15,278 bases of DNA from Gallionellaceae bacterium (GCA_036523795.1 DATDDN010000106.1:1-15278); one strand, 5' to 3'. Positions 1,421-14,094 are shown, numbered from the stretch's first letter. Notes: generated by a model not told the origin, from the letters alone. Program-made: numbers and translations.

Positions 1421-3016
1421 TCAGCCTTGCCGGATCGCATCGAACTCCAGCTCAAACCGGGCCAGATATTTGCGCAAGCGGTCGGCATCGTTGGCTTGCT
1501 TCTTCAACTGCCGGGATGCAGAGAACAGCTTGCGGCCAGCCTCTGACAGGCTGGTCGAGTTACGGCACACCTCGATGACCGTGTTGAGCTGGCAGCGATC
1601 GAACATGTCCAGCTCATGACTGCGCGCGCCCAGCACCTGTTCCGCCATATCTTGCTCGACAGGCTCTGCCCAGGCCGCGCGGAGGCGCTCGATTTCTTCC
1701 AGTACGACAGGCTCGGTCACCCGCCCGGCCTCGGCCAGCGTGGCCATGCGTGTCACCGAGGCGGTCAGCTCGCGGAAATTGCCTGGCCAGCGCGCCTCCG
1801 CCGACCGGGCAAAATCCAGATAACGCCGTTTGGCTTCGACATTGAAGCGCACGCGTTCGCCGCTTTCTCCCGCATAACGCTCCAGCTCGAAATCGAGGTT
1901 GGGCTCGATGTCCTCACCGCGCCGCGCCAGACCCAGCAAATCAAATTTCCACATATTGATCCGCGCATAGAGGTCTTCGCGGAACCGTCCTTCCGCCACC
2001 CATTGCTGCAGGTTGCGATGGGTGCCGGCAATCAGCTGGAAGTTGCTCTCCACCTCGCGGTCGCCGCCGAACGGGAAGAAGCGCTTCTCTTCAATGGCCT
2101 TGAGCAGCATGGCCTGTTCGTCCAGCCCCAGCTCGCCGATCTCGTCCAGAAACAGCAGCCCGTCGTCTGCGGCACGCAACAGCCCGGAGCGCTCGCTCTG
2201 TGCGCCGGTAAATGCGCCGCGCACATGTCCAAACAGACTGGACATGGCCGAATCGCCGCGCAGGGTGGCGCAGTTCACTTCGACAAACCTGCCGGACAGG
2301 CGCTGCCGCTGGCGCTTCAACTCATACACGCGGCGAGCCAGGAAAGACTTGCCGGCACCGGTGGGACCGACCAGCAGCATCGGTGCACGCGAACGGCTGG
2401 CGACCTGTTCGATGCGCTCTATGGTGCGGTTGAATTCGGCATTGCGCGTGGCGATACCCGCCTTGAGGAACACCAGCGATTCGTCGTGCTCGCGCGCAAA
2501 GCGCTGAGCAATCTTGTTGTAACGCGACAGATCGAGGTCGATGATTTCATAGCTGCCCACTGAATCGGCCTGCTCTTTCTTGCGCGGCGGCGAAGTTTGC
2601 AGCAGGCGCGCAGGCAGGTAGCGCGCCTCGGCCAGCAGGAACCAGCAGATCTGCGCCACGTGAGTGCCGGTGGTGATGTGGATCAGGTAATCCTCGTGCT
2701 CGATGTCGAACGGGTAGCTGCGCGCCAGGTCGTGCAGCATGGTGTAGACCTCTTCGAAATCCCACGGGTCGCGCAGTTCGATCTGCACCCTGCGCACCTC
2801 GGTCTCCGGCGAAACCGAGGCAATATCGCGGCTCACCCGTTCGGCCAGCGCCGTGCTGCGCGCATCGTGCAGCAGCTCGAAACGGCTCACCAGCAAGTCC
2901 TCCTGCTGGCACAGCGCCACACTGGGACGCCACTTCTCCCAGCGCCCCATGCCTTTGCCGCCATGATCCAGCTGAGTGCCAAGAAATCCGAAAACCACCA
3001 GTCGCTTTTTATCCAT
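1421..3016 (-). CDS. rtcR: Sigma-54-dependent transcriptional activator RtcR (N-terminal CARF-type regulatory domain, central AAA+ sigma-54 activation domain, C-terminal HTH)
   Basis: 531 aa. N-terminus MDKKRLVVFGFLGTQLDHGGKG matches the E. coli RtcR N-terminus pattern (MRKTVAFGFVGTVLDYAG). Central Walker A GPTGAGKS, the GAFTGA sigma-54 contact motif and Walker B LLFLDEIGEL are present. The gene is divergent from an rtcB/rtcA operon. Confidence 0.92.
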   Translation of the reverse strand: MDKKRLVVFGFLGTQLDHGGKGMGRWEKWRPSVALCQQEDLLVSRFELLHDARSTALAERVSRDIASVSPETEVRRVQIELRDPWDFEEVYTMLHDLARSYPFDIEHEDYLIHITTGTHVAQICWFLLAEARYLPARLLQTSPPRKKEQADSVGSYEIIDLDLSRYNKIAQRFAREHDESLVFLKAGIATRNAEFNRTIERIEQVASRSRAPMLLVGPTGAGKSFLARRVYELKRQRQRLSGRFVEVNCATLRGDSAMSSLFGHVRGAFTGAQSERSGLLRAADDGLLFLDEIGELGLDEQAMLLKAIEEKRFFPFGGDREVESNFQLIAGTHRNLQQWVAEGRFREDLYARINMWKFDLLGLARRGEDIEPNLDFELERYAGESGERVRFNVEAKRRYLDFARSAEARWPGNFRELTASVTRMATLAEAGRVTEPVVLEEIERLRAAWAEPVEQDMAEQVLGARSHELDMFDRCQLNTVIEVCRNSTSLSEAGRKLFSASRQLKKQANDADRLRKYLARFELEFDAIRQG

Positions 3017-3142: not shown

Positions 3143-3158
3143 TGGCACACATTTCGCT
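3143..3158 (+). promoter_or_regulatory. Sigma-54 (-24/-12) promoter, TGGCAC-N5-TCGCT, driving the + strand rtc-type operon
   Basis: Perfect -24 element TGGCAC (3143-3148). GC of the -12 element is at 3156-3157, with the canonical GG-N10-GC spacing. It is adjacent to, and divergent from, the sigma-54 activator gene rtcR. Predicted TSS near 3168-3170. Confidence 0.6.
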
Positions 3159-3285: not shown

Positions 3286-3334
3286 GGGCAATCTCTGGTG
3301 AGCCCGCCGGGTTCGATTCCCGGATTGCCCACCA
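3286..3334 (+). ncRNA. tRNA-like minihelix: 7-bp acceptor stem (GGGCAAT/ATTGCCC), T-arm (CCGGG-TTCGATT-CCCGG), discriminator A and CCA; no D or anticodon arm
   Basis: Read directly from the sequence. A canonical T-loop TTCGATT is closed by a 5-bp GC stem. A perfectly complementary acceptor stem ends in ACCA at 3331-3334. Only 14 nt (ctctggtgagcccg) replace the D and anticodon arms. It sits in the operon leader downstream of the sigma-54 promoter. Confidence 0.45.
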
Positions 3335-3405
3335 CTGGATAGCTCATTGGGTAGAGCAATCGACTAATCATCGATCTGTCGCGGGTTCGACTCCCGCTCC
3401 ACTGT
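3333..3405 (+). ncRNA. tRNA-like cloverleaf (probable tRNA mimic of the Y-RNA/YrlA type, or a pseudo-tRNA); anticodon position reads AAU
   Basis: Full 73-nt cloverleaf. Acceptor CACTGGA/TCCACTG (6/7 bp, C3-C70 mismatch), U8 and A9. D-arm GCTC-ATTGGGTA-GAGC with G18 and G19. Anticodon arm ATCGA-CTAATCA-TCGAT with U33 but a pyrimidine at position 37 and A34. 5-nt variable loop. T-arm GCGGG-TTCGACT-CCCGC with T54, T55, C56 and A58. No encoded CCA. It overlaps the CCA of the preceding minihelix by 2 nt. Confidence 0.55.
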
Positions 3406-3643
3406 CCTTACACGACAGATATGCAACACCGTAGTACCCGCCGGTTGCGGAATGCGCAAGCACCCGCCGCCGTCCGGGCCGGGCCTGCTGCCACACCGCC
3501 GGCAAGGTCGACAGAAGCAGGAGCGGAATGCTGTGCCGTACGGCAGCACCCGCAAGCGCTCTGCCCAGACCTCCCCGGCCGTGCCGCAGCAGGCACCCGC
3601 CAGGATGGCGCCCGACCGGCACATTTATCGAGGAGAAAGCAAC

Positions 3644-4783
3644 ATGCTGAAACGTTATGTCATCAAGAAAAATGAAAAAGGTTTGCTGTACAAGGACGGC
3701 GACTTCGAGCGCGTCCTCTCTGCAGGCCGCCACCTGTTTGTTGACCCGCTGCGCCGCCTGTCGCTGCAGACTTACCGGATCGACACCCAGATGAACGATG
3801 TATCCCTGGTGGATTACCTGCTCAAGACTGCGCCTGCGCAGGCCAATGAGCACTTTGTGTGCATGGAGCTGGCAGAAGACGAGGCCGGCCTGCGCTATGA
3901 GAACGGCCTGCTGGTCGAGGTGCTGCCGCCTGCCGCACGTCGTGTGTTCTGGAAAGGACTGCTACAGCACCGCCTGGACAAGGCCGACCTGAAGCAGGGA
4001 TACGCGCTGGATGCCCCCCTTGCCGGCCGCCTGGTGCAGACCGGCTTGCGTGGCCGCGCCCTGACCGGACTGACCGGTCTGCTGGTGGTGCAGATTCCCG
4101 CTTACCACGTCGGCATCCTGAAGGTGAACGGCAAGGTACAGCGCGTCCTTGAGCCCGGAGTGGAAGCGTTCTGGCGCTTCAACCGCGAGATCGAGGTAGA
4201 GCTGGTGGACACCCGCCTGCAGAACATGGAAGTCAGCGGGCAGGAGATCCTGACTCACGACAAGGTGGGGCTGCGCCTCAACCTCGCCGCCACCTGGCGC
4301 TACACCGATGCGCTGCAGGCGTTCGAAAAGCTGGTGAAGCCTGCCGAGCACCTGTACCGCGAGCTTCAGTTCGTGCTGCGTGCCGCAGTCGGAACACGCA
4401 GCCTGGATGAGCTGCTGGAAAACAAGCAGGTGATCGACGAGCTGGTCATCGCCCACGTCACCCGCAAGTTCGCCGGCTTCGGCATCGAGGTGACCAGCGC
4501 CGGCGTGAAGGACATCGTGCTGCCGGGCGAGATGAAGACCATCCTCGCCCAGGTGGTGGAGGCCGAGAAGTCGGCGCAGGCCAATGTGATCCGTCGCCGC
4601 GAGGAGACCGCAGCCACCCGTTCGCTGCTGAACACCGCCAAGGTGATGGAGGACAACCCCACCGCCCTGCGACTGAAAGAGCTGGAAACACTGGAGCGCG
4701 TGGCCGAGCGTATCGACCGCATCAGCGTATTCGGTGGACTGGACCAGGTGCTGAATGGCCTGGTGCAGATTCGCGGCGACTAA
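3644..4783 (+). CDS. SPFH/band-7 (stomatin-prohibitin-flotillin-HflK/C) domain protein, 379 aa; no N-terminal transmembrane segment, so apparently cytoplasmic
   Basis: ATG at 3644 with RBS GAGGAG 8 nt upstream. Canonical SPFH core (…IPAYHVGILKVNGKVQRVLEPGVEAFWRF…QEILTHDKVGLRLNLAATWRYTD…SLDELLENKQVIDELVIAHVTRKFAGFGIEVTSAGVKDIVLPGEMK…) is followed by a predicted coiled-coil. The N-terminal ~50 aa (VIKKNEKGLLYKDGDFERVLSAGRHLFVDP) look like a second, partial copy of the SPFH N-terminal strand region. The ORF-track start at 3452 only adds an Arg/Pro-rich, low-complexity extension typical of GC-rich non-coding DNA. Confidence 0.8.
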   Translation: MLKRYVIKKNEKGLLYKDGDFERVLSAGRHLFVDPLRRLSLQTYRIDTQMNDVSLVDYLLKTAPAQANEHFVCMELAEDEAGLRYENGLLVEVLPPAARRVFWKGLLQHRLDKADLKQGYALDAPLAGRLVQTGLRGRALTGLTGLLVVQIPAYHVGILKVNGKVQRVLEPGVEAFWRFNREIEVELVDTRLQNMEVSGQEILTHDKVGLRLNLAATWRYTDALQAFEKLVKPAEHLYRELQFVLRAAVGTRSLDELLENKQVIDELVIAHVTRKFAGFGIEVTSAGVKDIVLPGEMKTILAQVVEAEKSAQANVIRRREETAATRSLLNTAKVMEDNPTALRLKELETLERVAERIDRISVFGGLDQVLNGLVQIRGD

Positions 4784-4788
4784 GCCAT

Positions 4789-4810
4789 GGGCACGCCTGA
4801 TTGCGTGCCC
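4789..4810 (+). other. Intercistronic perfect hairpin GGGCACGC-ctgatt-GCGTGCCC (8-bp stem) with no U-tract
   Basis: Seen directly, 6 nt after the SPFH stop (4781-4783) and 18 nt before the next start codon. No downstream T-run, so more likely an mRNA processing or stability element, or a partial attenuator, than a terminator. Confidence 0.4.
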
Positions 4811-4827
4811 ACTTACCGGAGAACATC

Positions 4828-5238
4828 ATGACAAGTGGAAAACAGCGGCGTGCAGCCATCAAGGCAGCACGTTTGCGCCGGGAATTCAGGCAACAAGCGG
4901 CATTACGTGAAACGACCATGCCATCCTTGCTGCCCTTGCATACCGCAGCCGTCAACCCGGCCTGCCTGGCACCCTACAACAGCTATGGCGAGCCGGATTT
5001 CGTCAACCGCGGTTACTATCAGGACCAGCCGTTCGTGTGCGTGGATTGCGGCGCACCGGGGGTATGGAGCGCGCAGCGGCAAAAATGGTGGTATGAAATA
5101 GCCAAGGGCAACGTCTGGTCCTGCGCCATCCGCTGCCCCACCTGCCGTGCGCGACGCCGCGCCATCAGCGCAGAAGGGCGCCGCACCTGGATGGAAGGCA
5201 TGAAACACAAGCAGGCTGCCTCGCAGCCTGCCAAATAA
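4828..5238 (+). CDS. Small basic zinc-ribbon protein (136 aa) with two CxxC pairs (CVDC…CPTC), function unknown
   Basis: ATG at 4828 with GGAGAA 6 nt upstream. N-terminus Lys/Arg-rich (MTSGKQRRAAIKAARLRREFRQQ). FVCVDCGAP…(28 aa)…CAIRCPTCR forms a 4-Cys Zn-ribbon-like motif. Tightly packed between the SPFH gene and rtcB: 13 nt to the rtcB start, versus 44 nt after the SPFH stop. Confidence 0.6.
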   Translation: MTSGKQRRAAIKAARLRREFRQQAALRETTMPSLLPLHTAAVNPACLAPYNSYGEPDFVNRGYYQDQPFVCVDCGAPGVWSAQRQKWWYEIAKGNVWSCAIRCPTCRARRRAISAEGRRTWMEGMKHKQAASQPAK

Positions 5239-5251
5239 CAAGGAAACAGTT

Positions 5252-6469
5252 ATGGAACATCAAATTCTCGAGGTAGCCCACGGCAAGCCGATCAAGATGT
5301 GGACCCAGGGGGTGCCCGTTGAAGACGAGGCACGCCAGCAACTGATGAACACGGCACGGATGCCGTTCATCTTCAGCCACATTGCCGTGATGCCGGACGT
5401 GCATCTGGGCAAGGGGTCGACCATCGGCAGCGTGATCCCCACCCGTGGCGCCATCATTCCGGCAGCCGTCGGCGTGGACATCGGCTGCGGCATGATGGCG
5501 GCGCGCACCTCGCTCAAGGCGAGCGACCTGCCAGACTATCTGCACGGCCTGCGCAGCGCTATCGAGCGGGCTGTGCCGCATGGCCGCACCAGCACACGCA
5601 GCGGGCGTGACAAAGGTGCCTGGGATACGCCGCCGACAAGCGTGGATGCAATGTGGGGTGAACTGGTACCGGGCTTCAAGCGCATCATCGAGAAGCACCC
5701 GCGCCTGGCCAAAACCAACAACCACAAGCACCTGGGAACGCTTGGAACCGGTAACCACTTCATCGAAGTGTGCCTGGACGAGACCGACACGGTGTGGTTC
5801 ATGCTGCATAGCGGTTCGCGTGGTGTCGGGAATGCCATCGGCACCCACTTCATCGAACTGGCCCAGGCCGACATGCGCCAGCACATTGCCAATCTCCCGG
5901 ATCGCGACCTCGCCTATTTCGAAGAAGGCAGCTCACACTTCGCCGATTATGTCGAGGCGGTGGGGTGGGCGCAGGATTACGCGCGGCGCAATCGTGCAGT
6001 GATGATGCAGAACGTGGTTGCGGCTGCACGCCAGGTGATCGCCAAGCCGTTCGATGCCAGCGTGGAAGCGGTGAATTGCCACCACAACTATGTGCAGAAG
6101 GAAACGCATTTCGGCAGTGAGATTCTGGTCACCCGCAAGGGAGCTGTGTCCGCGCGCAAGGGTGAGCTCGGCATCATTCCCGGCTCGATGGGGGCAAAAA
6201 GCTACATCGTGCGCGGACTCGGCAACGAGGAATCGTTCTGCTCGTGCAGCCATGGTGCCGGCCGTACCATGAGCCGCAATGAAGCAAAGCGCCGCTTTAC
6301 GCTGGAAGACCAGATCGGTGCGACGGCCCATGTGGAGTGCCGCAAGGACGAGGCAGTGATCGACGAAATCCCGATGGCCTACAAGGACATCGATGCCGTG
6401 ATGGAAGCGCAGCGCGCCCTGGTGGAAGTCGTGCATACCCTGCGTCAGGTGGTATGCGTGAAGGGATGA
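5252..6469 (+). CDS. rtcB: RNA-splicing ligase RtcB (3'-phosphate/5'-hydroxyl RNA ligase)
   Basis: 405 aa, collinear over its whole length with E. coli RtcB. Examples: KMWTQGVPVE, MPFIFSHIAVMPDVHLGKGSTIGSVIPT, HLGTLGTGNHFIE, NCHHNYV, GNEESFCSCSHGAGR, TLRQVVCVKG. RBS AAGGAAA. Confidence 0.96.
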   Translation: MEHQILEVAHGKPIKMWTQGVPVEDEARQQLMNTARMPFIFSHIAVMPDVHLGKGSTIGSVIPTRGAIIPAAVGVDIGCGMMAARTSLKASDLPDYLHGLRSAIERAVPHGRTSTRSGRDKGAWDTPPTSVDAMWGELVPGFKRIIEKHPRLAKTNNHKHLGTLGTGNHFIEVCLDETDTVWFMLHSGSRGVGNAIGTHFIELAQADMRQHIANLPDRDLAYFEEGSSHFADYVEAVGWAQDYARRNRAVMMQNVVAAARQVIAKPFDASVEAVNCHHNYVQKETHFGSEILVTRKGAVSARKGELGIIPGSMGAKSYIVRGLGNEESFCSCSHGAGRTMSRNEAKRRFTLEDQIGATAHVECRKDEAVIDEIPMAYKDIDAVMEAQRALVEVVHTLRQVVCVKG

Positions 6470-6488: not shown

Positions 6489-7316
6489 ATGCAACACAAC
6501 AAGCCCGCCATACTGAGTGCGCACCCCATCGCACCCGAGGTGCGACAGCGAGTCATGCAGGCACTCGACGACATCGAGGCCAGGCACGACGTGCAAGTGC
6601 TGTTCGCTTGCGAATCCGGCAGCCGCGGCTGGGGTTTCGCCTCGCCGGACAGCGACTACGATGTGCGCTTCGTATACACGCACCGGCTGCCCTGGTATTT
6701 GAACGTGGAGCCGCAGCGCGATGTGATCGAACTGCCGATCAGCGACGAGCTGGACGTGAGCGGCTGGGAGCTGCGCAAAGCCTTGCGGCTGCTGCGCAGA
6801 TCCAATCCGACCCTGCTGGAATGGCTGGACTCGCCCGTGGTCTATCGCGAGAATCCGGCCGCAGCGGCACGCATGCGTACGCTCGCGCCGGATTTCTTTT
6901 CCAGGCTCAGCGTGCGCTACCACTATCTGGCGATGGCGAAGAAGAACTTTCGCGGCTATCTGCAGGGAGAGTCGGTGCGTCTGAAGAAATACCTGTATGT
7001 ATTGCGGCCCCTGCTCGCAGTGCGCTGGATAGACCGTGGCGGCGGAATGCCGCCCATGCGCTTTGCCGAGCTGGCGGATGCCATGCTTGATGACCTGCCC
7101 CTGCTGGGCGAGATCAATCGGCTGCTCGCCATCAAGATGCAGGCCAACGAGGCGGAATACAGCCCGCGCTGGCCGCTGGTGCACGCATTTATCGTCAGCG
7201 AACTGGAAAAGGTCGAGCGGCAGCTTGACTACAAAAAACCCGTGGGTGACTCGGGCGCGCTGGACCGATTTCTGGCGGATACCGTGCTGTCCTTCACGGC
7301 ACAGCAACTGATTTGA
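6489..7316 (+). CDS. Pol-beta-superfamily nucleotidyltransferase (GS…DxD minimal NTase; from memory it resembles the RtcB-linked RlaP/PF10127-type family)
   Basis: 275 aa. Motif FACESGSRGWGFASPDSDYDVRFVY is the GS-X9-13-DxD nucleotidyltransferase signature. RBS AGGAGAAGG. It lies between rtcB (stop 6469) and rtcA (start 7328) with 19 and 11 nt spacers, so it is an operon member. Confidence 0.85.
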   Translation: MQHNKPAILSAHPIAPEVRQRVMQALDDIEARHDVQVLFACESGSRGWGFASPDSDYDVRFVYTHRLPWYLNVEPQRDVIELPISDELDVSGWELRKALRLLRRSNPTLLEWLDSPVVYRENPAAAARMRTLAPDFFSRLSVRYHYLAMAKKNFRGYLQGESVRLKKYLYVLRPLLAVRWIDRGGGMPPMRFAELADAMLDDLPLLGEINRLLAIKMQANEAEYSPRWPLVHAFIVSELEKVERQLDYKKPVGDSGALDRFLADTVLSFTAQQLI

Positions 7317-7327
7317 GGTAACAAGAA

Positions 7328-8341
7328 ATGAAATTTCTGCTTCTCGATGGCGCCCACGGTGAAGGGGGCGGCCAGATCCTGCGCAGCGCGCTCACGCTTT
7401 CGATGATCACCGGACAGCCGTTCCGCATCGAGCGCATTCGCGCCGGGCGCAACAAGCCTGGCCTGTTGCGCCAGCACCTGACCGCAGTCAATGCTGCCGC
7501 CAGCATCTGCTCTGCAAGGGTCGGCGGCAATGCTGCCGGTTCGCAAACGCTGGAATTCATTCCCGGCCGCGTCAAGGGCGGGGATTACCGGTTTGACATC
7601 GGCACCGCCGGCAGTTGCACCTTGGTGCTGCAGACCGTGCTGCCCGCCTTGTGGTTTGCCGATCAGCCCAGCAGCCTGACCGTCAGCGGCGGCACGCACA
7701 ACGCTGCCGCGCCGCCGGCTGATTTTCTGATGCGCACCTGGCTGCCCGCGATGCAGCGCATGGGCGTCGACACGCATCTCGAGCTGCTGCGGCACGGCTT
7801 CTATCCGGCCGGAGGTGGCGCGGTACGCGCCAGCGTGCGTCCGCTAGCCGCCCTGCAGCCCTTGCACATGACGGAGCCCGGCCGCTCGGCTTCGGTACAG
7901 GCCATCGCCATAGTCGCCGCGTTGCCGGGCGATATTGCACGGCGCGAACTGACACGCCTGCGGCATCATTTCCCGGAGGCTGCGGAAGAAATGCGCGTGC
8001 TCGATGCCCGCGAAGGCCCGGGCAATGTGGTCATGCTCGAAGTGGCGCGCGACAATCACCGCGAGATTTTCAGTGCCTTCGGCGAGCGTGGCGTGAAGGC
8101 CGAGCTGGTCGCCGAACGCGCGGCCGGAGAGGCGCTACGCTACCTGGCCAGCAGGGCCTGCGTCAGCGAGCACCTGGCCGACCAGCTGGTGCTGCCCCTC
8201 GCACTGGCGGGTGGCGGCAGCTTTACGACCACGACGGTGTCGTCGCACCTTGCCAGCAACATGCAGGTCCTCCAGAAGTTCCTGCCGGTCGGGTTTGAGA
8301 TAACGCAGAACGGGGATATCCCGCAGATCGTTGTGCGATAA
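7328..8341 (+). CDS. rtcA: RNA 3'-terminal phosphate cyclase RtcA
   Basis: 337 aa. LDGAHGEGGGQILRSALTLSMITGQPFRIERIRAGRNKPGLLRQHLTAV… and GSCTLVLQTVLPALWFAD…LLRHGFYPAGGG…ADQLVLPLALAGGG are collinear with E. coli RtcA. Confidence 0.94.
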   Translation: MKFLLLDGAHGEGGGQILRSALTLSMITGQPFRIERIRAGRNKPGLLRQHLTAVNAAASICSARVGGNAAGSQTLEFIPGRVKGGDYRFDIGTAGSCTLVLQTVLPALWFADQPSSLTVSGGTHNAAAPPADFLMRTWLPAMQRMGVDTHLELLRHGFYPAGGGAVRASVRPLAALQPLHMTEPGRSASVQAIAIVAALPGDIARRELTRLRHHFPEAAEEMRVLDAREGPGNVVMLEVARDNHREIFSAFGERGVKAELVAERAAGEALRYLASRACVSEHLADQLVLPLALAGGGSFTTTTVSSHLASNMQVLQKFLPVGFEITQNGDIPQIVVR

Positions 8342-8515: not shown

Positions 8516-9631
8516 ATGTCCGAAAAGCTCATCCACATCGTCGATCACCGTCCCGGCATCCGCATGCCGCGGCTGGCTGGCGCGCTGGAGCAGCCCAGCG
8601 GTTCACTGCGCGACAGCCGTGGCCGCCTGCTGCAGGACCTGCGCATCTCGCTCACCGACCGCTGCAACTTCCGTTGCGTGTACTGCATGCCGAAGGAAAC
8701 CTTCGACAAGGATCACGTGTTCCTGCCGCGCAGCTCGCTGCTCAGCTTCGAAGAGATCGAGCGCATCGCGCGCATCTTCGTGGCGCATGGCGTGCACAAG
8801 ATCCGCCTCACCGGCGGCGAGCCGCTGCTGCGCAAGCACATCGAACAGCTGATTGAGCGCCTGGCACAACTGCGCACCCCGGACGGCCTGCCGCTCGACC
8901 TTACCCTCACCACCAATGGCTCACTGCTGGCGAAGAAGGCACGTGCCTTGAAAGACGCCGGGCTGAGCCGTGTCACCGTGTCGCTCGACTCGCTCGACGA
9001 CACCATCTTCCGCCGCATGAACGACGTCGACTTCCCCGTGTCGGAAGTGCTGCATGGCCTGGAAGCCGCGCACGAAGCCGGCCTCGGCCCGATCAAGGTG
9101 AACATGGTGGTGAAGGGCGGCATGAACGACCAGGAGATCGTGCCGATGGCGCGCTACTTCAAGGGCTCGCCGTTCATCCTGCGCTTCATCGAATACATGG
9201 ACGTCGGCACTTCCAACGGCTGGAAGATGGATGAGGTGATTCCCTCCGCCGAAGTGGTGCGCCGCATCCACGCCGAACTGCCGCTGGAAAAACTTGACCC
9301 CAACCAGCCCAGCGAAACCGCCGCGCGCTGGCGCTATGCCGATGGCTCCGGCGAGATCGGCGTCATCTCCAGCGTGACCCAGAGCTTCTGCCACGAATGC
9401 ACCCGAGCCCGCCTCTCCACCGAAGGTGTGTTGTACCACTGCCTGTTTGCCAGCGAAGGCCATGACCTGCGCGCCCTGCTGCGCGACGGCAGCAGCGACG
9501 AGGCCATCTCCAGCATCATCGCCCAGCTGTGGCGCGCGCGCAGCGACCGCTATTCCGAACTGCGCAGCCAGCAGACCGAGTACGCCGCACCCGAGCGCAA
9601 GCGGGTGGAGATGTCGTATATCGGTGGCTAA
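8516..9631 (+). CDS. moaA: GTP 3',8-cyclase MoaA (radical-SAM, molybdenum cofactor biosynthesis)
   Basis: The [10 protein letters not shown] radical-SAM cluster motif, …LTGGEPLL…, and the C-terminal [21 protein letters not shown]…MSYIGG match E. coli MoaA. An alternative in-frame GTG start at 8510 (MTMSEK) is possible. Confidence 0.93.
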
Positions 9632-9799
9632 CCCCTCCACCAGCCATTTCCCGCTCTAGTTACAAGCAGCAGCCTTCATCGCATGGCGTATACTCGGCTG
9701 ATTTCTCGATTGATAATTCGAGCCTGGCCCCTTTGATTCACTAGACTCTCTTCGGCTGGCAACTTATAGATTTTTTGACCAACGGTCGCAGAGGTAGAA

Positions 9800-10036
9800 A
9801 TGCAGGCCAAGAAAAATAAAATTTACGCAACAAGTAAGAGAGTTAAATCCGCGCTCGTTGGCATAACCAAACATATGATGCTCAATTATATTTTGTTTAA
9901 TTATGTTGATAAGAATAAATGGGTTGATGAGCTGAAAGCGTCTTTTGGAGTTCCATTTGTCGACAATCGAACAGATTTCAACTACTCGAAGTGTTTTTTT
10001 ACTGCATTAATCAAAGAGGCCTTGAACTTGGTTTAA
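9800..10036 (+). CDS. Hypothetical protein, 5' part of a low-GC gene that appears split by a -1 frame change at a T7 run
   Basis: ATG with RBS GAGGTAGAA. GC content drops sharply (about 35% vs about 65% in the surroundings). The ORF ends 36 nt after the run TTTTTTT (9994-10000). The downstream ORF continues in the -1 frame from the same run. Confidence 0.4.
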   Translation: MQAKKNKIYATSKRVKSALVGITKHMMLNYILFNYVDKNKWVDELKASFGVPFVDNRTDFNYSKCFFTALIKEALNLV

Positions 10037-10392
10037 CTTCTAGCCAGTTTTATGAGTACTTGCAGGAGCACGGGATATTGGATCGCGTGTTTATACAAAT
10101 TTCTACACTTGCTCCATTTGTAACCTATGAATACATGCAATATCAATTTATAAAAAACGATGCGCCTGGAATACATAAGAACCGACAAATTCATTTAAAG
10201 AGAAATCCTAGCCCTAACAATGAATTCAAAAAATTCGTTGAGTCCGGGATGCAGAAATTTTGCGAGGATAACGAACTCTATATTCTCGAAGATCAGGATT
10301 TGCGCATGAGAGTTGAAGGGGTATCGTTAGAGTTGTCAAAAGATCAAGCGACAGTTTTCAATTTTTTCTTTGACGACGAGAGCAAGGAATAG
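9991..10392 (+). CDS. Hypothetical protein, 3' part of the same low-GC gene (-1 frame relative to 9800..10036)
   Basis: Open frame of 133 aa with no recognisable motif. Its in-frame start codon is only a GTG inside the T-run, so the 3' part is more plausibly read by frameshift from the upstream ORF than started independently. Confidence 0.4.
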   Translation: MFFYCINQRGLELGLTSSQFYEYLQEHGILDRVFIQISTLAPFVTYEYMQYQFIKNDAPGIHKNRQIHLKRNPSPNNEFKKFVESGMQKFCEDNELYILEDQDLRMRVEGVSLELSKDQATVFNFFFDDESKE

Positions 10393-10517
10393 TTGTCGGC
10401 ACAATTGGAACCTACCTTGCGTTGTGCGTGTAAAGGTGCTGAATCTCCAACGCCCAATTTCAATGGACCGGATTAGAGGGTCGAATCTGCGCCAATCAGC
10501 ATAGTGTGCGCATTAAC

Positions 10518-10805
10518 CTAGAAATCCAACGGGTCCACATCCAGCGACCAGCGCAGCTTCCACGCACGCAGGAACTGCTGCAATGACTTGCGCGTGGCGG
10601 CGGGCACCACGCCGTACACTTCCACTTCACCCTGCACCGCCGTGGCAGCCGCATGCGCCTGCTGCGTGAAGGCATACACCTCGCCTTCGTTCTTGACCTC
10701 TGCCCGCAACAGCGCCTGGAGCACGAACGGAGGGAAGCCGGCCTGTTCGCGCTCGGCCAGCAGGGTGCGCGCCCAGGCCTCATAGTCGTGGACGATCAGC
10801 GCGCG
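10518..10805. repeat. Diverged direct repeat, copy A, of the priA 3'-terminal 369 bp (partner at 11890-12258)
   Basis: Manual alignment. Homology begins exactly at the stop codon and ends near 10805 / 12258. Copy A lacks 30 nt and 51 nt; the second deletion is bounded by TGGCGGC direct repeats. Confidence 0.7.
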
Positions 10806-10895
10806 GCCGTCAGGCGGAAAGAAGCTACGCAGCCAAAAATGGATCCTAAATTGGGTGGACACCTGGCGTACTCTCATGACAACTAGCCCAGCCAT
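10518..10895 (-). pseudogene. Relic of the priA 3' end: a novel 31-aa N-terminus fused to a shortened copy of the last ~94 codons of PriA
   Basis: Translation …ALIVHDYEAWARTLLAEREQAGFPPFVLQALLRAEVKNEGEVYAF…LRWSLDVDPLDF parallels the PriA C-terminus encoded at 11890-12258. Two in-frame deletions (30 and 51 nt), about 9% substitutions, and TAG vs TAA stop. A strong terminator sits immediately upstream of its ATG, so independent expression is unlikely. Confidence 0.6.
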
Positions 10896-10899
10896 CCGT

Positions 10900-10934
10900 A
10901 AAAAAGCAGAACCCGGAACACGGGTTCTGCTTTT
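10900..10934. terminator. Bidirectional rho-independent terminator: A6 - GCAGAACCCG-gaaca-CGGGTTCTGC - T4
   Basis: Perfect 10-bp GC-rich stem with a 5-nt loop, flanked by an A-run on the left and a T-run on the right. About 100 nt downstream of the stop of the minus-strand gene 11031-11651. Confidence 0.7.
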
Positions 10935-11030
10935 ACTCCTGCTGCTTCAGGTTTGAACTCGGGCTGTCACACAGCCTGTGTCCTCCAATCATCTGATGAG
11001 GTCAAAACCCCGTCAAATGACAAACCTTTA

Positions 11031-11651
11031 CTATTTCGCGTTGGCTACGGTATATGTGCCCACGCCGCCATGACCTGTGCCATAGGCAACAATCTTGACT
11101 GGCTGCGTAAAGCCGCCGCCCGACAATACAGTGCCAATTTCAAGGTGGCCAGACGCAATTGCCGTTACAGTCAGTGTGTTGCCAGACAGCGTGCCGGTCA
11201 TCACCAATTTGTTACCGTTATCGCCGTTATTTTCATGGTCCTTTTCTAACCCCTTCTTCTTGCCGTTATCCATTCCATTCTTCTTGCCGCGACCTTGTTG
11301 GTCTTCGTCAATGGAGCCAGTGATAGCCGTCGACGTCGGTACCGGGGCTGGGGCAGCCACTGGGACCGGATCTGGTGCAACTACTGGAGCTGGCGCAACT
11401 GCCGCAGTAGTACTTGTGGTTGTAGTTGGAGCAGTTGCAGTAGTTGTGGTTGGAGCAGTGGTAGTAGTTGTGATTGTGGTTGTGGTTGTAGGCGGACACA
11501 GCACAACTCCTGGCGGAAGAATCATGCCGGGGGGAAGGGTCGTGGTCCCGGGCGGCAGAGGAAAGCACGACAGTGTCTGTGCAGCCACAATTGGAGAGTT
11601 CGACAGCACAGCCAGGAATGCGGTGGCAACTGCGTACTTAGCGATTTTCAT
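11031..11651 (-). CDS. Secreted hypothetical protein with a signal peptide, a Thr/Pro/Ala-rich mucin-like low-complexity linker, a Lys/Asn/Gly-rich charged segment and a small C-terminal Gly-rich domain
   Basis: RBS AAGGAG 7 nt before the ATG. N-terminus [26 protein letters not shown] looks like a Sec signal with an AxA-type cleavage site. T5-T6 runs ([28 protein letters not shown]) are encoded by imperfect tandem nucleotide repeats. A terminator follows the stop. Confidence 0.7.
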
Positions 11652-11831
11652 ATTAACTCCTTATTCAAAATTTAATACAGCAAACAGGTGCGACTTCTTC
11701 CTGACTGAATGATGACTCAGGATAAATGTCTAGTGCAATGCCCATTGGATAGCCGGGGTTCCTAACATGACCAGCGGCCACTCTTCTGCATCAACGGTTA
11801 TCTATTTACGACGAACGGCGCCACAAGCACT

Positions 11832-11843
11832 TGACAATTGTCA
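11832..11843. promoter_or_regulatory. Perfect 12-bp palindrome TGACAATTGTCA (overlapping a TTGACA hexamer) upstream of the secreted-protein gene and just past the priA stop
   Basis: Seen directly. It is a 5-2-5 inverted repeat about 190 nt upstream of the ATG at 11651, a candidate operator for an unknown dimeric regulator. It does not match the LexA, CRP or FNR consensus. Confidence 0.25.
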
Positions 11844-11889
11844 CCTCATGATGGATTTCGGCTCAGTTGGCTGATCACCTTGTCGGCCT

Positions 11890-12258
11890 TTAGAAATCCA
11901 GCGGGTCCACATCCAGCGACCAGCGCAGTTTCTGCGCCGGCAGCGCATCCAGCTGCGGCTTCCAGGCGCGCAGGAACTGCTGCAGCGCCTTGCGCGTGGC
12001 GGCCTGCACCAGCAGCTGCACCAGGTAGTGGTTGGCGCGCTTGGGCATGGCGGCGGGCACCACGCCGTACACTTCCACTTCGCCCTGCACGGCCGTGGCG
12101 GCCGCATGTGCCTGCTGCATAAAGGCGTACACCTCGCCTTCGTTCTTGCCCTCTGCCCGCAACAGTGCCTGGAACACGAACGGCGGGAAACCGGCCTGTT
12201 CGCGCTCGGCCAGCAGGGTGCGCGCCCAGGCTTCGTAGTCGTGCGCGATCAGCGCGCG
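11890..12258. repeat. Direct repeat copy B, the intact 3' end of priA (partner at 10518-10805)
   Basis: See copy A. This copy is contiguous with full-length priA. Confidence 0.7.
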
Positions 12259-14094
12259 GAACAGGGGATGCTCGGGAAAGGCGGTCTGCACCAGCACTTC
12301 GCCCGGCTTGTCGGCACGGCCGGCGCGACCGGCCACCTGTGACAGCTGGGCGAACAGTTTTTCCGAGGCGCGAAAGTCGCTGCTGTACAGCGCGCTATCC
12401 GGGTTGAGCACGCCCACCAGGGTGAGGTTCGGAAAGTCGTGACCCTTGGCCAGCATCTGGGTGCCCACCAGGATGTCCACCGCATCATCCTGGATCTTCT
12501 TGCGCATGGCGGCCCAGCTGCCCTTGTTGCGCGTGCTGTCGCGATCCACCCGCAGGATTCTGGCCTCAGGGAAGTGTGCCTGCAGCGCCGCCTCGATGCG
12601 CTGGGTGCCGATGCCGACCGGCTGCAGGTCGGTGTTGCCGCAGGAGGGACAGGCGTGCGGCACGCGCTGCTGATGGCCGCAGTGGTGGCAGCGCAGGCGG
12701 CGGTCCCTCAGGTGCAACACCAGCTTGCCCGCGCAATGGGGGCAGCCGGACAGCCAGCCGCAGGCGGTGCACATCAGCACCGGCGCATGGCCGCGGCGGT
12801 TGATGAACACCAGGCTTTGTTCCTTGCGCTGCAGGCGCTCACCCAGGGCGGCGAGCAGGGCCGGCGTCATGCCTTCGTGCAGCGGCACGGTGGTGGTGTT
12901 GAGGCAGCGCACCTCGGGCAGGCGCGCCTGCTGGTTGGCGCGCTGGCGCAGCGGCAGCAGGGTGTAGCGCCCGCTGTGCGCGTTGTGCCAGCTTTCCAGC
13001 GAGGGGGTGGCCGAGCCGAGCACGATGGGGACCGATCTTTGATTCGCTCGGAAGATGGCCACGTCGCGCGCCGAATAGCGCAGGCCGTCCTGCTGCTTGA
13101 ACGAGGCATCATGCTCTTCGTCCACGATGATCAGGCCCAGCTCGGGTAGCGGAGTGAATACTGACAGGCGGGTGCCCAGCACGATGCGCGCCTGCCCCGA
13201 CTGCGCGCGCAACCAGTTCTGTGTGCGCTCACCCTCGCTGAGGCCGCTGTGCAGGCTGACCAGCTCGGTCTGCGGGAAGCGGCTCTGGAAGTAATGCTCC
13301 AGCTGCGGGGTGAGGTTGATCTCAGGCACCAGCAGCAGCACTTGGCCACTGCGCTGCAGGAAGTGGTGCATCAGGTGCACGTAGACTTCGGTCTTGCCGC
13401 TGCCGGTGATGCCGTACAGCAGGAAGCTGGCATAGCCTGCGGAGCGGGTGACGGGGTCGACCGCCTGTTGCTGTTCGTCGGTGAGGGTGTGGGCGTTTTC
13501 AAACGCGACTTGGGTGAGTTCGCCCGCTGCCTTGGCATGCTCAGGCGACGATGTTGGCGCACACTCCCGAGCCCAACCGGTTTCCAGCAATGCCTTCAGT
13601 GTGGCCATCGCACTGGGCGAGAGCGCACGCACCTGCTGCGCGCCCAGCGGGCCGGCCTGCAGGGCCGCCAGGATGCGGTGCTGGACCACCTTGCGCTTGG
13701 GCAGCTGCGCCAGATCGAGCGCGCGTCCTGCTTCACTCAGTTCATAAGTCAGCGCCCGCTTCAGCGTGACAGGCTCGCCGCTGCGCACGCGCGCAGGCAG
13801 CGCGGCAAGTACGGTCATACCGAGTGGATGCTGGTAATAGTCGCTACAGAAGCGCAGCAGCTTGAGCAGGTCGGCGGGCAACGGCGGCACGTCGTCCAGC
13901 ACTTGCTGCACCGCTTTGATGCGCTCGGCGGGAACATCGGTTTCACTCAGGCACTCAAGCACCACGCCGACCATCTGCTGGCGGCCGAACGGCACCAGCA
14001 CGCGTTGCCCCACCACTGCAGTGAAATTTTCCGGCAGAAAATAATCAAACAGTGTTGACAGCGGCACGTCGAGTGCAACGCGAACAAAATTCAT
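11890..14094 (-). CDS. priA: Primosomal protein N' (replication-restart helicase PriA)
   Basis: 734 aa. N-terminus MNFVRVALDVPLSTLFDYFLPE (E. coli [22 protein letters not shown]). Walker A GITGSGKTEVY, DEEHD, the Cys-rich Zn-binding region CTACGWLSGCPHCAGKL…CHHCGHQQRVPHACPSCG, and a C-terminal …LDVDPLDF. Confidence 0.95.
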   Translation of the reverse strand: MNFVRVALDVPLSTLFDYFLPENFTAVVGQRVLVPFGRQQMVGVVLECLSETDVPAERIKAVQQVLDDVPPLPADLLKLLRFCSDYYQHPLGMTVLAALPARVRSGEPVTLKRALTYELSEAGRALDLAQLPKRKVVQHRILAALQAGPLGAQQVRALSPSAMATLKALLETGWARECAPTSSPEHAKAAGELTQVAFENAHTLTDEQQQAVDPVTRSAGYASFLLYGITGSGKTEVYVHLMHHFLQRSGQVLLLVPEINLTPQLEHYFQSRFPQTELVSLHSGLSEGERTQNWLRAQSGQARIVLGTRLSVFTPLPELGLIIVDEEHDASFKQQDGLRYSARDVAIFRANQRSVPIVLGSATPSLESWHNAHSGRYTLLPLRQRANQQARLPEVRCLNTTTVPLHEGMTPALLAALGERLQRKEQSLVFINRRGHAPVLMCTACGWLSGCPHCAGKLVLHLRDRRLRCHHCGHQQRVPHACPSCGNTDLQPVGIGTQRIEAALQAHFPEARILRVDRDSTRNKGSWAAMRKKIQDDAVDILVGTQMLAKGHDFPNLTLVGVLNPDSALYSSDFRASEKLFAQLSQVAGRAGRADKPGEVLVQTAFPEHPLFRALIAHDYEAWARTLLAEREQAGFPPFVFQALLRAEGKNEGEVYAFMQQAHAAATAVQGEVEVYGVVPAAMPKRANHYLVQLLVQAATRKALQQFLRAWKPQLDALPAQKLRWSLDVDPLDF

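Follow-up and report, generated by a model that had tools for sequence, protein, structure and literature searches.

Membrane organisation is taken to be almost the defining property of SPFH proteins, and recent cryo-electron microscopy has resolved stomatin, HflK/C, prohibitin, erlin and flotillin as cages. In certain bacteria RtcB is encoded beside a Band-7 protein and a predicted 'band 7-associated tRNA' (abbreviated b7a-tRNA), an association attributed to Burroughs and Aravind 2016 in a citing preprint (bioRxiv 10.1101/312249), which also states that b7a-tRNA and YrlA occasionally swap partners and that b7a-tRNA was without experimental validation as of 2018. We have analysed an SPFH gene located within an RNA-repair operon in a stretch of 15,278 nucleotides from a Gallionellaceae bacterium (GCA_036523795.1 DATDDN010000106.1:1-15278), referred to here as the window. 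The Band-7 gene, the RtcB gene adjoining it and the adjoining tRNA-like non-coding RNA of the described module are all present and are conserved in related loci. From its gene content, the locus looks like a member of the Band-7/b7a-tRNA RNA-repair module, with nothing essential differing from what the citing preprint relays of that module. A soluble SPFH protein associated with RNA repair, which a preliminary description of this DNA had called new biology, is thus an already published comparative-genomics prediction, and the Pseudomonas aeruginosa SPFH protein PaFlo8 has already been noted in an rtc locus (PMC13086221). In the protein encoded here, which by homology is a stomatin-type SPFH protein without its anchor, two additional copies of the first SPFH β-strand module take the place of the membrane anchor, giving three tandem modules. 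The balance of probability tips slightly towards a cytoplasmic ring or cup which, with the tRNA-like RNA of its own transcript bound to it, serves as a scaffold or cofactor of RtcB-dependent repair, which we consider the most likely of the readings weighed below.

Several described loci resemble this one to differing degrees. PaFlo8 (PA14_60630) lies inside the rtcR-rtcB-rtcA locus and is treated, in the available part of a 2026 study, as belonging to a group of membrane-associated SPFH factors (PMC13086221). It is encoded in the same rtc-locus position as the gene analysed here, in a different host, the two being matched by position. PA4582 of strain PAO1 is recorded in a 2021 paper (PMC8619066) as a conserved rtcB-operon protein of unknown function, and other Pseudomonas species encode proteins 63-64% identical to the SPFH protein in the same arrangement. 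In Salmonella, Ro60/Rsr and YrlA of the rsr-yrlBA-rtcBA operon share the operon position and the regulator (RtcR, sigma-54) of the present system, a ring-forming protein and a tRNA-like non-coding RNA again standing upstream of rtcB, and damaged tRNAs activate that operon via RtcR according to the accessible text of PMC7790460. However, Ro60 is a TROVE/vWA protein and is not homologous to the SPFH protein, the likeness being functional only. No TROVE match was found in the operon analysed here, and the Rfam YrlA model gave a weak match of 17.8 bits against a gathering score of 69, spanning the T-arm of one module and the D-arm of the next in the leader RNA described below. A trcR mutant of Anabaena shows de-repression of the slipin gene alr0740, of rtcB and of a tRNA-array operon (PMC10272220); alr0740 is set beside the SPFH family, as we call the homologues of the present protein, by its slipin label only.

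The SPFH start codon, which is preceded by a GAGGAG ribosome-binding site at 3631-3636, is fixed at 3644 because Met1 is invariant among 50 aligned homologues of the same length. A longer open reading frame beginning at 3452 was rejected, as the homologues all start at the Met encoded at 3644 and the extension is non-hydrophobic and overlaps a covarying RNA helix. The protein has the SPFH α/β fold of the Band_7 superfamily, Pfam Band_7 (PF01145) covering residues 150-321 with an E-value of 7.5e-31 and 108 bits against a gathering score of 23.6. A transmembrane helix was sought by the Kyte-Doolittle 19-residue mean (KD19) and none was found in the SPFH protein, the maximum of 1.46 lying at residues 143-161, which form the first strand of the third β-module in the AlphaFold model. 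The positive control, a canonical slipin encoded on a Rhodococcus plasmid, scored 3.25 by the same measure at residues 4-22, where the transmembrane helix sits directly before the first SPFH strands. Membership of the HflK or HflC families was likewise rejected, as the scores fall far under the NCBIfam equivalog cut-offs (HflK 35.9 versus 159.4 bits; HflC 25.3 versus 134.4). The preliminary description, which had proposed an SPFH/band-7 protein without a hydrophobic N-terminal helix, outside the known membrane families of HflK/C type, therefore agrees with hydropathy, domain boundaries and family scores alike. Among 166 SPFH-family proteins of at least 300 aa, a KD19 well above 1.9 is observed in P0133 alone (3.23). 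The strongly hydrophobic segment of this 416-aa protein, residues 8-26, lies before the repeat modules and hints that a membrane-anchored variant of the family may exist.

The same description had reported that the N-terminus duplicates the first strand region of the SPFH fold. This duplication is real and is larger than described, with two extra copies present and not one. Comparison of residues 1-60 with residues 135-200 gave a z of 5.2 and with residues 60-135 a z of 3.8, values reached in 0 of 500 shuffles in either case, and residues 60-135 against 135-200 gave a z of 2.9, matched by 8 of 500 shuffles. A repeat hidden Markov model (HMM) iterated over the SPFH family also places three copies, at residues 4-44, 73-115 and 148-189; it was seeded from the three tested segments and its E-values are not independent evidence. 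In the AlphaFold2 monomer three equivalent five-strand modules are observed with a predicted local distance difference test (pLDDT) of 84-94, modules 1 and 2 each being followed by short helices. The SPFH core (residues 193-292) and a helix (residues 295-357) come next and lead into a poorly predicted tail. Across the family, the long helix and the C-terminal segment are the best-conserved part of the protein.

This conserved part also carries the relationship to stomatin. Residues 187-374 align to residues 113-300 of human stomatin in a phmmer search (E 1.4e-16), an alignment that includes the region matching the stomatin '...STIVFP' C-terminal segment, and the profile match to stomatin reaches an E-value of 5e-24. 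Homology to the stomatin subfamily thus extends through the coiled-coil helix and the C-terminal segment, so that the assembly elements of stomatin are kept in the SPFH protein. Stomatin and the archaeal PH1511 stomatin (slipin) are the best sequence and fold matches, with SPFH core, long helix and C-terminal segment all aligning, and a structural search placed the HflK/C-FtsH, QmcA-YbbJ and stomatin assemblies at the top. In contrast, stomatins possess an N-terminal membrane hairpin or transmembrane helix and often an NfeD partner, neither of which is observed here, the two additional β-modules taking their place. The stomatin N-terminal anchor is absent by hydropathy, and among the six neighbouring operon proteins there is no Pfam NfeD match, nor is an FtsH gene present in the operon.

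The layout of the family, with a repeat array, an SPFH-like shoulder and a helix, recalls that seen in the major vault protein (MVP). Homology of the N-terminal repeats to MVP was considered and dropped, and the comparison is retained as analogy only. Pfam Vault-repeat domains do not match the SPFH protein or its longer relatives, Foldseek, run with the N-terminal model, gave nothing at E <= 0.001 and its list of 50 matches does not include MVP, and a PDB search with a profile built from 80 diverse repeat units gave no meaningful match, the lowest E-value (0.13) belonging to an unrelated helicase. By this analogy, two stomatin-like cups might be joined by their N-terminal β-modules in the fashion of vault halves, producing a closed membrane-free shell around the tRNA-like leader RNA, perhaps with RtcB and RlaP inside, whose length would depend on the module number (3 in this protein, as many as 11 in relatives). 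We regard such a shell as improbable; if it does exist, it would amount to a bacterial equivalent of the vault, built from SPFH protein and dedicated to RNA repair.

The region upstream of the SPFH gene contains tRNA-like RNAs that the preliminary description missed, and these are the most informative part of the system. Conservation was followed in 80 loci, one genome per species, whose proteins are 62-79% identical and which derive mostly from Betaproteobacteria and Pseudomonas; the denominators given here and below are the evaluable loci with enough flank (68, 69, 63, 75 or 76 of the 80). In approximately 52 of 75 related loci a motif of the TGGCAC-N5-TCGC type precedes the SPFH start codon by 450-566 nt, and the corresponding sigma-54-type promoter of the window is listed in Table 1. 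As all of the following elements are downstream of this promoter, the tRNA-like modules, the hairpins, the long helix and the SPFH mRNA should be made as one transcript. The first of these elements is a mini tRNA-like module, whose base pairing can be seen in its alignment to the weakly matching Rfam family mascRNA-menRNA (18.7 bits, E 0.41). This module abuts the full tRNA-like element, with a two-base overlap.

The full tRNA-like element (3333-3407) is probably the b7a-tRNA of Burroughs and Aravind. Its cloverleaf is supported by covariation across 59 loci, all five anticodon-stem pairs showing compensatory changes. In these loci the D and T arms hardly vary, the acceptor stem comprises just 4 bp, and the anticodon loop varies in both sequence and length, with many of the loops being tetraloop-like. 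ARAGORN detects a tRNA-like element 230-347 nt upstream of the SPFH gene in 59 of 80 loci, with approximately 22 different 'anticodons' that include CAT, GAT, AAT, TTT, GTT and AAC. The element is a tRNA mimic and not a decoding tRNA. At least one T-arm motif is found upstream of the SPFH gene in 75 of 76 loci and two, ∼72-75 nt apart, in 67 of the 76; in Pseudomonas loci ARAGORN calls two tandem tRNA-like genes. Beyond these modules the leader continues through two small conserved hairpins into a long helix, in which 22 of 36 pairs show compensatory changes among 10 sequences. Over the whole 53-pair leader structure 93.6% of cells are paired, compared with 28-46% when the partners are slid by 1-3 columns, and covariation as high as that observed occurred in 0 of 500 shuffles. 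The long helix matches no family in an Rfam search. By analogy it could be a protein-binding stem, as in Y RNAs, or else a processing or regulatory element.

Linkage to rtc genes, inferred earlier from the single locus, is conserved across the sample. Of 68 loci, 56 have a divergent rtcR ahead of the SPFH gene, at a distance of 607-792 nt in 55 of them and of 1718 nt in one, and rtcB is located downstream in 60 of 69. rtcA and rlaP are present in 37 and 28 of 63 loci, respectively, and the zinc-finger gene lies between the SPFH gene and rtcB in 24 of 63. The translational coupling that had been proposed for the SPFH gene is not borne out, since 44 nt separate its stop codon from the zinc-finger ATG at 4828; the genes are linked as an operon without overlap. 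The SPFH gene is, as had been stated, the first coding sequence of the operon, but it is not the first element, as ∼470 nt of conserved structured RNA precede it on what should be the same transcript. A separate arrangement is observed in seven Burkholderiales loci (L056, L062, L064, L068, L072, L074 and L078), in which rtcR is absent and two to nine ordinary-looking tRNA genes are located 1-2 kb upstream of the SPFH gene, ahead of the tRNA-like element, the SPFH gene and rtcB.

The family extends well beyond these loci. When the N-terminal 148 residues were searched against 1.84 billion representative proteins, 431 clusters were recovered at E <= 0.001, 104 of them at E <= 1e-10. In the longer members examined Band_7 is always C-terminal and the N-terminal array varies in length; repeat counts in the family are mostly 3, with 4, 5, 7, 9 and 11 also occurring. 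Seven to 11 tandem β-modules and one C-terminal Band_7 are detected in P0131 (787 aa), P0265 (894 aa) and P0194 (637 aa), the exception among the long proteins being P0206 (924 aa), with only 4 modules detected despite an extension of ∼690 aa. RtcB and RlaP are encoded immediately after P0194, and P0131 and P0265 are not near RNA-repair genes. No relative of the SPFH protein was found in a phage collection.

Distant members retain both associations in part, which supports the reading of the protein as a partner of the RNA in repair. RNA-repair neighbours are observed at L083, where a seven-module protein of an AT-rich organism is directly followed by RtcB and RlaP, and at L087 (1075-3805), where a five-module member lies downstream of a gene for the RNA 2'-phosphotransferase Tpt1/KptA (PF01885) with a tRNA-like element between the two, 326 nt upstream of the SPFH gene. 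The latter arrangement suggests that the module may pair with other RNA-repair enzymes too. tRNA-like elements are also kept at L084, where four in tandem precede a five-module protein, and at L086, where a three-module relative has one such element and a MazE/PIN pair nearby and no rtcB. In this small sample of distant relatives, pairing of the protein with tRNA-like RNA looks at least as persistent as its pairing with RtcB.

The order of events proposed for the most likely reading begins at the sigma-54 promoter, which would drive the leader RNA, the SPFH gene, the zinc-finger protein, RtcB, RlaP and RtcA together. The helix and C-terminal segment of the SPFH protein would then mediate its assembly into a homo-oligomeric ring or cup, as in SPFH proteins with solved assemblies, here floating free in the cytoplasm, and this assembly would bind the co-transcribed tRNA-like RNA. 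The resulting ribonucleoprotein would bring damaged RNA together with RtcB, and with RlaP, as a scaffold or cofactor, in parallel with the role proposed for Ro60/Rsr and the tRNA-like YrlA. Oligomerisation, RNA binding and any effect on repair are steps that we infer from homology and gene arrangement. A number of observations weigh against this proposal. In the monomer model the SPFH core and helix reach only moderate confidence (pLDDT 51-76), and the N-terminal region is only mildly basic, with a pI of 9.3 and a net charge of +4. No functional test of the pairing was found in the searchable literature, nor an experiment that ties the protein to RNA or to repair, and deletion of PaFlo8 is reported, in the part of the study available, to leave growth, virulence factors, motility, biofilm and survival of oxidative stress unaffected (PMC13086221). 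rtcB is not nearby in relatives L036, L043-L046, L059, L065, L067, L081, L082, L085 and L086, and an upstream tRNA-like element was not found at L081-L083 by ARAGORN and Rfam or at L085 and L088 by ARAGORN; the long-array proteins of L081 and L082 have neither the element nor RNA-repair genes nearby. A further locus of this kind is L088 of Citrobacter freundii (NZ_CP151862.1, 3966-7919), which consists of rtcR, slipin and an RlaP-like nucleotidyltransferase gene without rtcB or rtcA, and in which a shorter spacer of 448 nt keeps one T-arm-like motif. Because of this locus, the SPFH protein is judged, on gene content, to have no strict need of RtcB in cis. No near match to the Citrobacter version was found in complete E. 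coli genomes.

The same assembly could be imagined instead as a regulator or container that encloses or restrains RtcB, RlaP or a nuclease, or that stores the tRNA-like RNA, thereby limiting ligation to proper substrates; the preliminary description had suggested such a compartment. The solved HflK/C-FtsH, QmcA-YbbJ and stomatin assemblies found at the top of the structural search are domes enclosing a partner, the helix and C-terminal segment are kept, and the SPFH gene precedes the enzyme genes, all of which is consistent with containment. This reading is nevertheless doubtful, as the operon proteins include no partner with an SPFH-binding domain (no NfeD in Pfam), a single cup would stay open without a membrane to close the dome, and the data do not tell inhibition from facilitation. 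The RNA might, on the other hand, act mainly alone, as a bait or sensor that anticodon nucleases or stress RNases would cut, the resulting 2',3'-cyclic-phosphate fragments feeding back on the CARF domain of RtcR, with the SPFH protein having a separate role. Such a function would suit an RNA located between the promoter and the first coding sequence, whose highly variable 'anticodon' loops mimic many tRNAs, and it finds a precedent in the activation of the Salmonella operon by damaged tRNAs via RtcR, as described in the accessible text of PMC7790460. However, many of the loops resemble tetraloops and not tRNA loops, and the acceptor stem has only 4 bp. Moreover, the tRNA-like elements stay by the SPFH family even at loci that lack rtcR and rtcB or show no sign of them (L084, L086, L087), which points to a pairing of protein and RNA and makes an RNA acting mainly by itself rather unlikely.

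An ordinary membrane SPFH scaffold or protease modulator of the HflK/C, QmcA or flotillin type, with an anchor that was missed, is suggested by the database names, 'slipin family protein' in NCBI PGAP (for an identical protein from a metagenome-assembled genome of Gallionellaceae) and 'regulator of protease activity HflC' in JGI, and by the strongly hydrophobic N-terminal segment of P0133. Against this stand the KD19 of 1.46 versus 3.25 in the control, the invariant Met1 of the 50 homologues, the position of the non-hydrophobic in-frame upstream extension inside a conserved RNA helix, HflK/HflC scores far below the cut-offs, and the lack of an NfeD or FtsH gene in the operon, so that we consider a missed anchor highly improbable.

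Lacking an anchor and tied to structured RNA and to RNA-repair enzymes in many proteobacterial species, the SPFH family is thereby a clear counter-example to the view of SPFH proteins as membrane organisers. The papers cited here leave unsettled the roles of RtcB accessory factors, namely Ro60 with Y RNA, Band-7 with tRNA-like RNA, and RlaP. The cages resolved by cryo-electron microscopy make it possible to answer what an SPFH ring closes onto without a membrane. Handles contributed here for this purpose are the protein module boundaries, the promoter, the two-module tRNA-like leader and the long covarying helix without an Rfam family (Table 1).

Table 1. Features of the SPFH/RNA-repair locus, with positions counted from the first letter of the window.
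Feature	Position	Strand	Details
Sigma-54-type promoter	3143..3157	+	TGGCAC-N5-TCGC, read from sequence; ~500 nt upstream of SPFH gene
Mini tRNA-like module	3286..3334	+	Perfect 7-bp acceptor-like stem GGGCAAU/AUUGCCC; T-arm CCGGGUUCGAUUCCCGG; encoded 3' ACCA
Full tRNA-like element	3333..3407	+	ARAGORN tRNA-Ile, anticodon AAT; Rfam tRNA 53.2 bits, E 3e-09
Two small conserved hairpins	3402-3418 and 3447-3467	+	RNAalifold and pair counts, 10 loci; 98-99% of cells paired, little variation
Long leader helix, variable apical part	3468..3610	+	3468-3508 pairs with 3569-3610; RNAalifold and pair counts, 10 loci
SPFH gene	3644-4783	+	ATG 3644, TAA 4781-4783; 379 aa
SPFH β-module 1 (aa 1-70)	3644..3853	+	Strands 2-7, 11-17, 20-25, 28-33, 39-45; two short helices in 54-70; HMM copy 4-44
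SPFH β-module 2 (aa 71-145)	3854..4078	+	Strands 71-75, 80-86, 89-94, 99-103, 109-115; helix 124-136; HMM copy 73-115
SPFH β-module 3 and α/β core (aa 146-294)	4079..4525	+	Canonical Band_7 domain
SPFH long helix (aa 295-357), C-terminal segment (aa 358-379), stop	4526..4783	+	
rtcR, sigma-54-dependent RNA-repair activator	1421..3016	-	Divergent; NCBIfam RNA_repair_RtcR 828.6 bits versus 650; Pfam RtcR and Sigma54_activat
Treble-clef zinc-finger protein (zf_Tbcl)	4828..5238	+	Pfam PF13451, E 1.4e-12
rtcB, RNA 3'-phosphate/5'-OH ligase	5252..6469	+	Pfam RtcB, E 6e-131; 469 nt 3' of SPFH gene
rlaP, RNA-repair-pathway nucleotidyltransferase	6489..7316	+	Pfam PF10127, E 5e-97
rtcA, RNA 3'-terminal phosphate cyclase	7328..8341	+	NCBIfam 461 bits versus cut-off 352
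moaA	8510-9631		After rtcA

Two minor observations were made elsewhere in the window. In the gap between the SPFH and zinc-finger genes, positions 4789-4810 form a GC-rich hairpin with a perfect stem of 8 bp (GGGCACGC-ctgatt-GCGTGCCC) that lacks a T run and may be a transcript-stability or processing element. Downstream of the operon, a second copy of the 3' end of priA (11891-12259), 86-92% identical, is located at 10519-10806, and the interval between the two copies holds a gene (11031-11651) whose Thr/Pro-rich product has a hydrophobic N-terminus. The segment at ∼9750-10350, with an open reading frame at 9991-10392, has a GC content of 35-38% compared with ∼61-68% elsewhere in the profiled stretch. 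From these features, the region 9600-12260 looks like an insertion at the end of priA.

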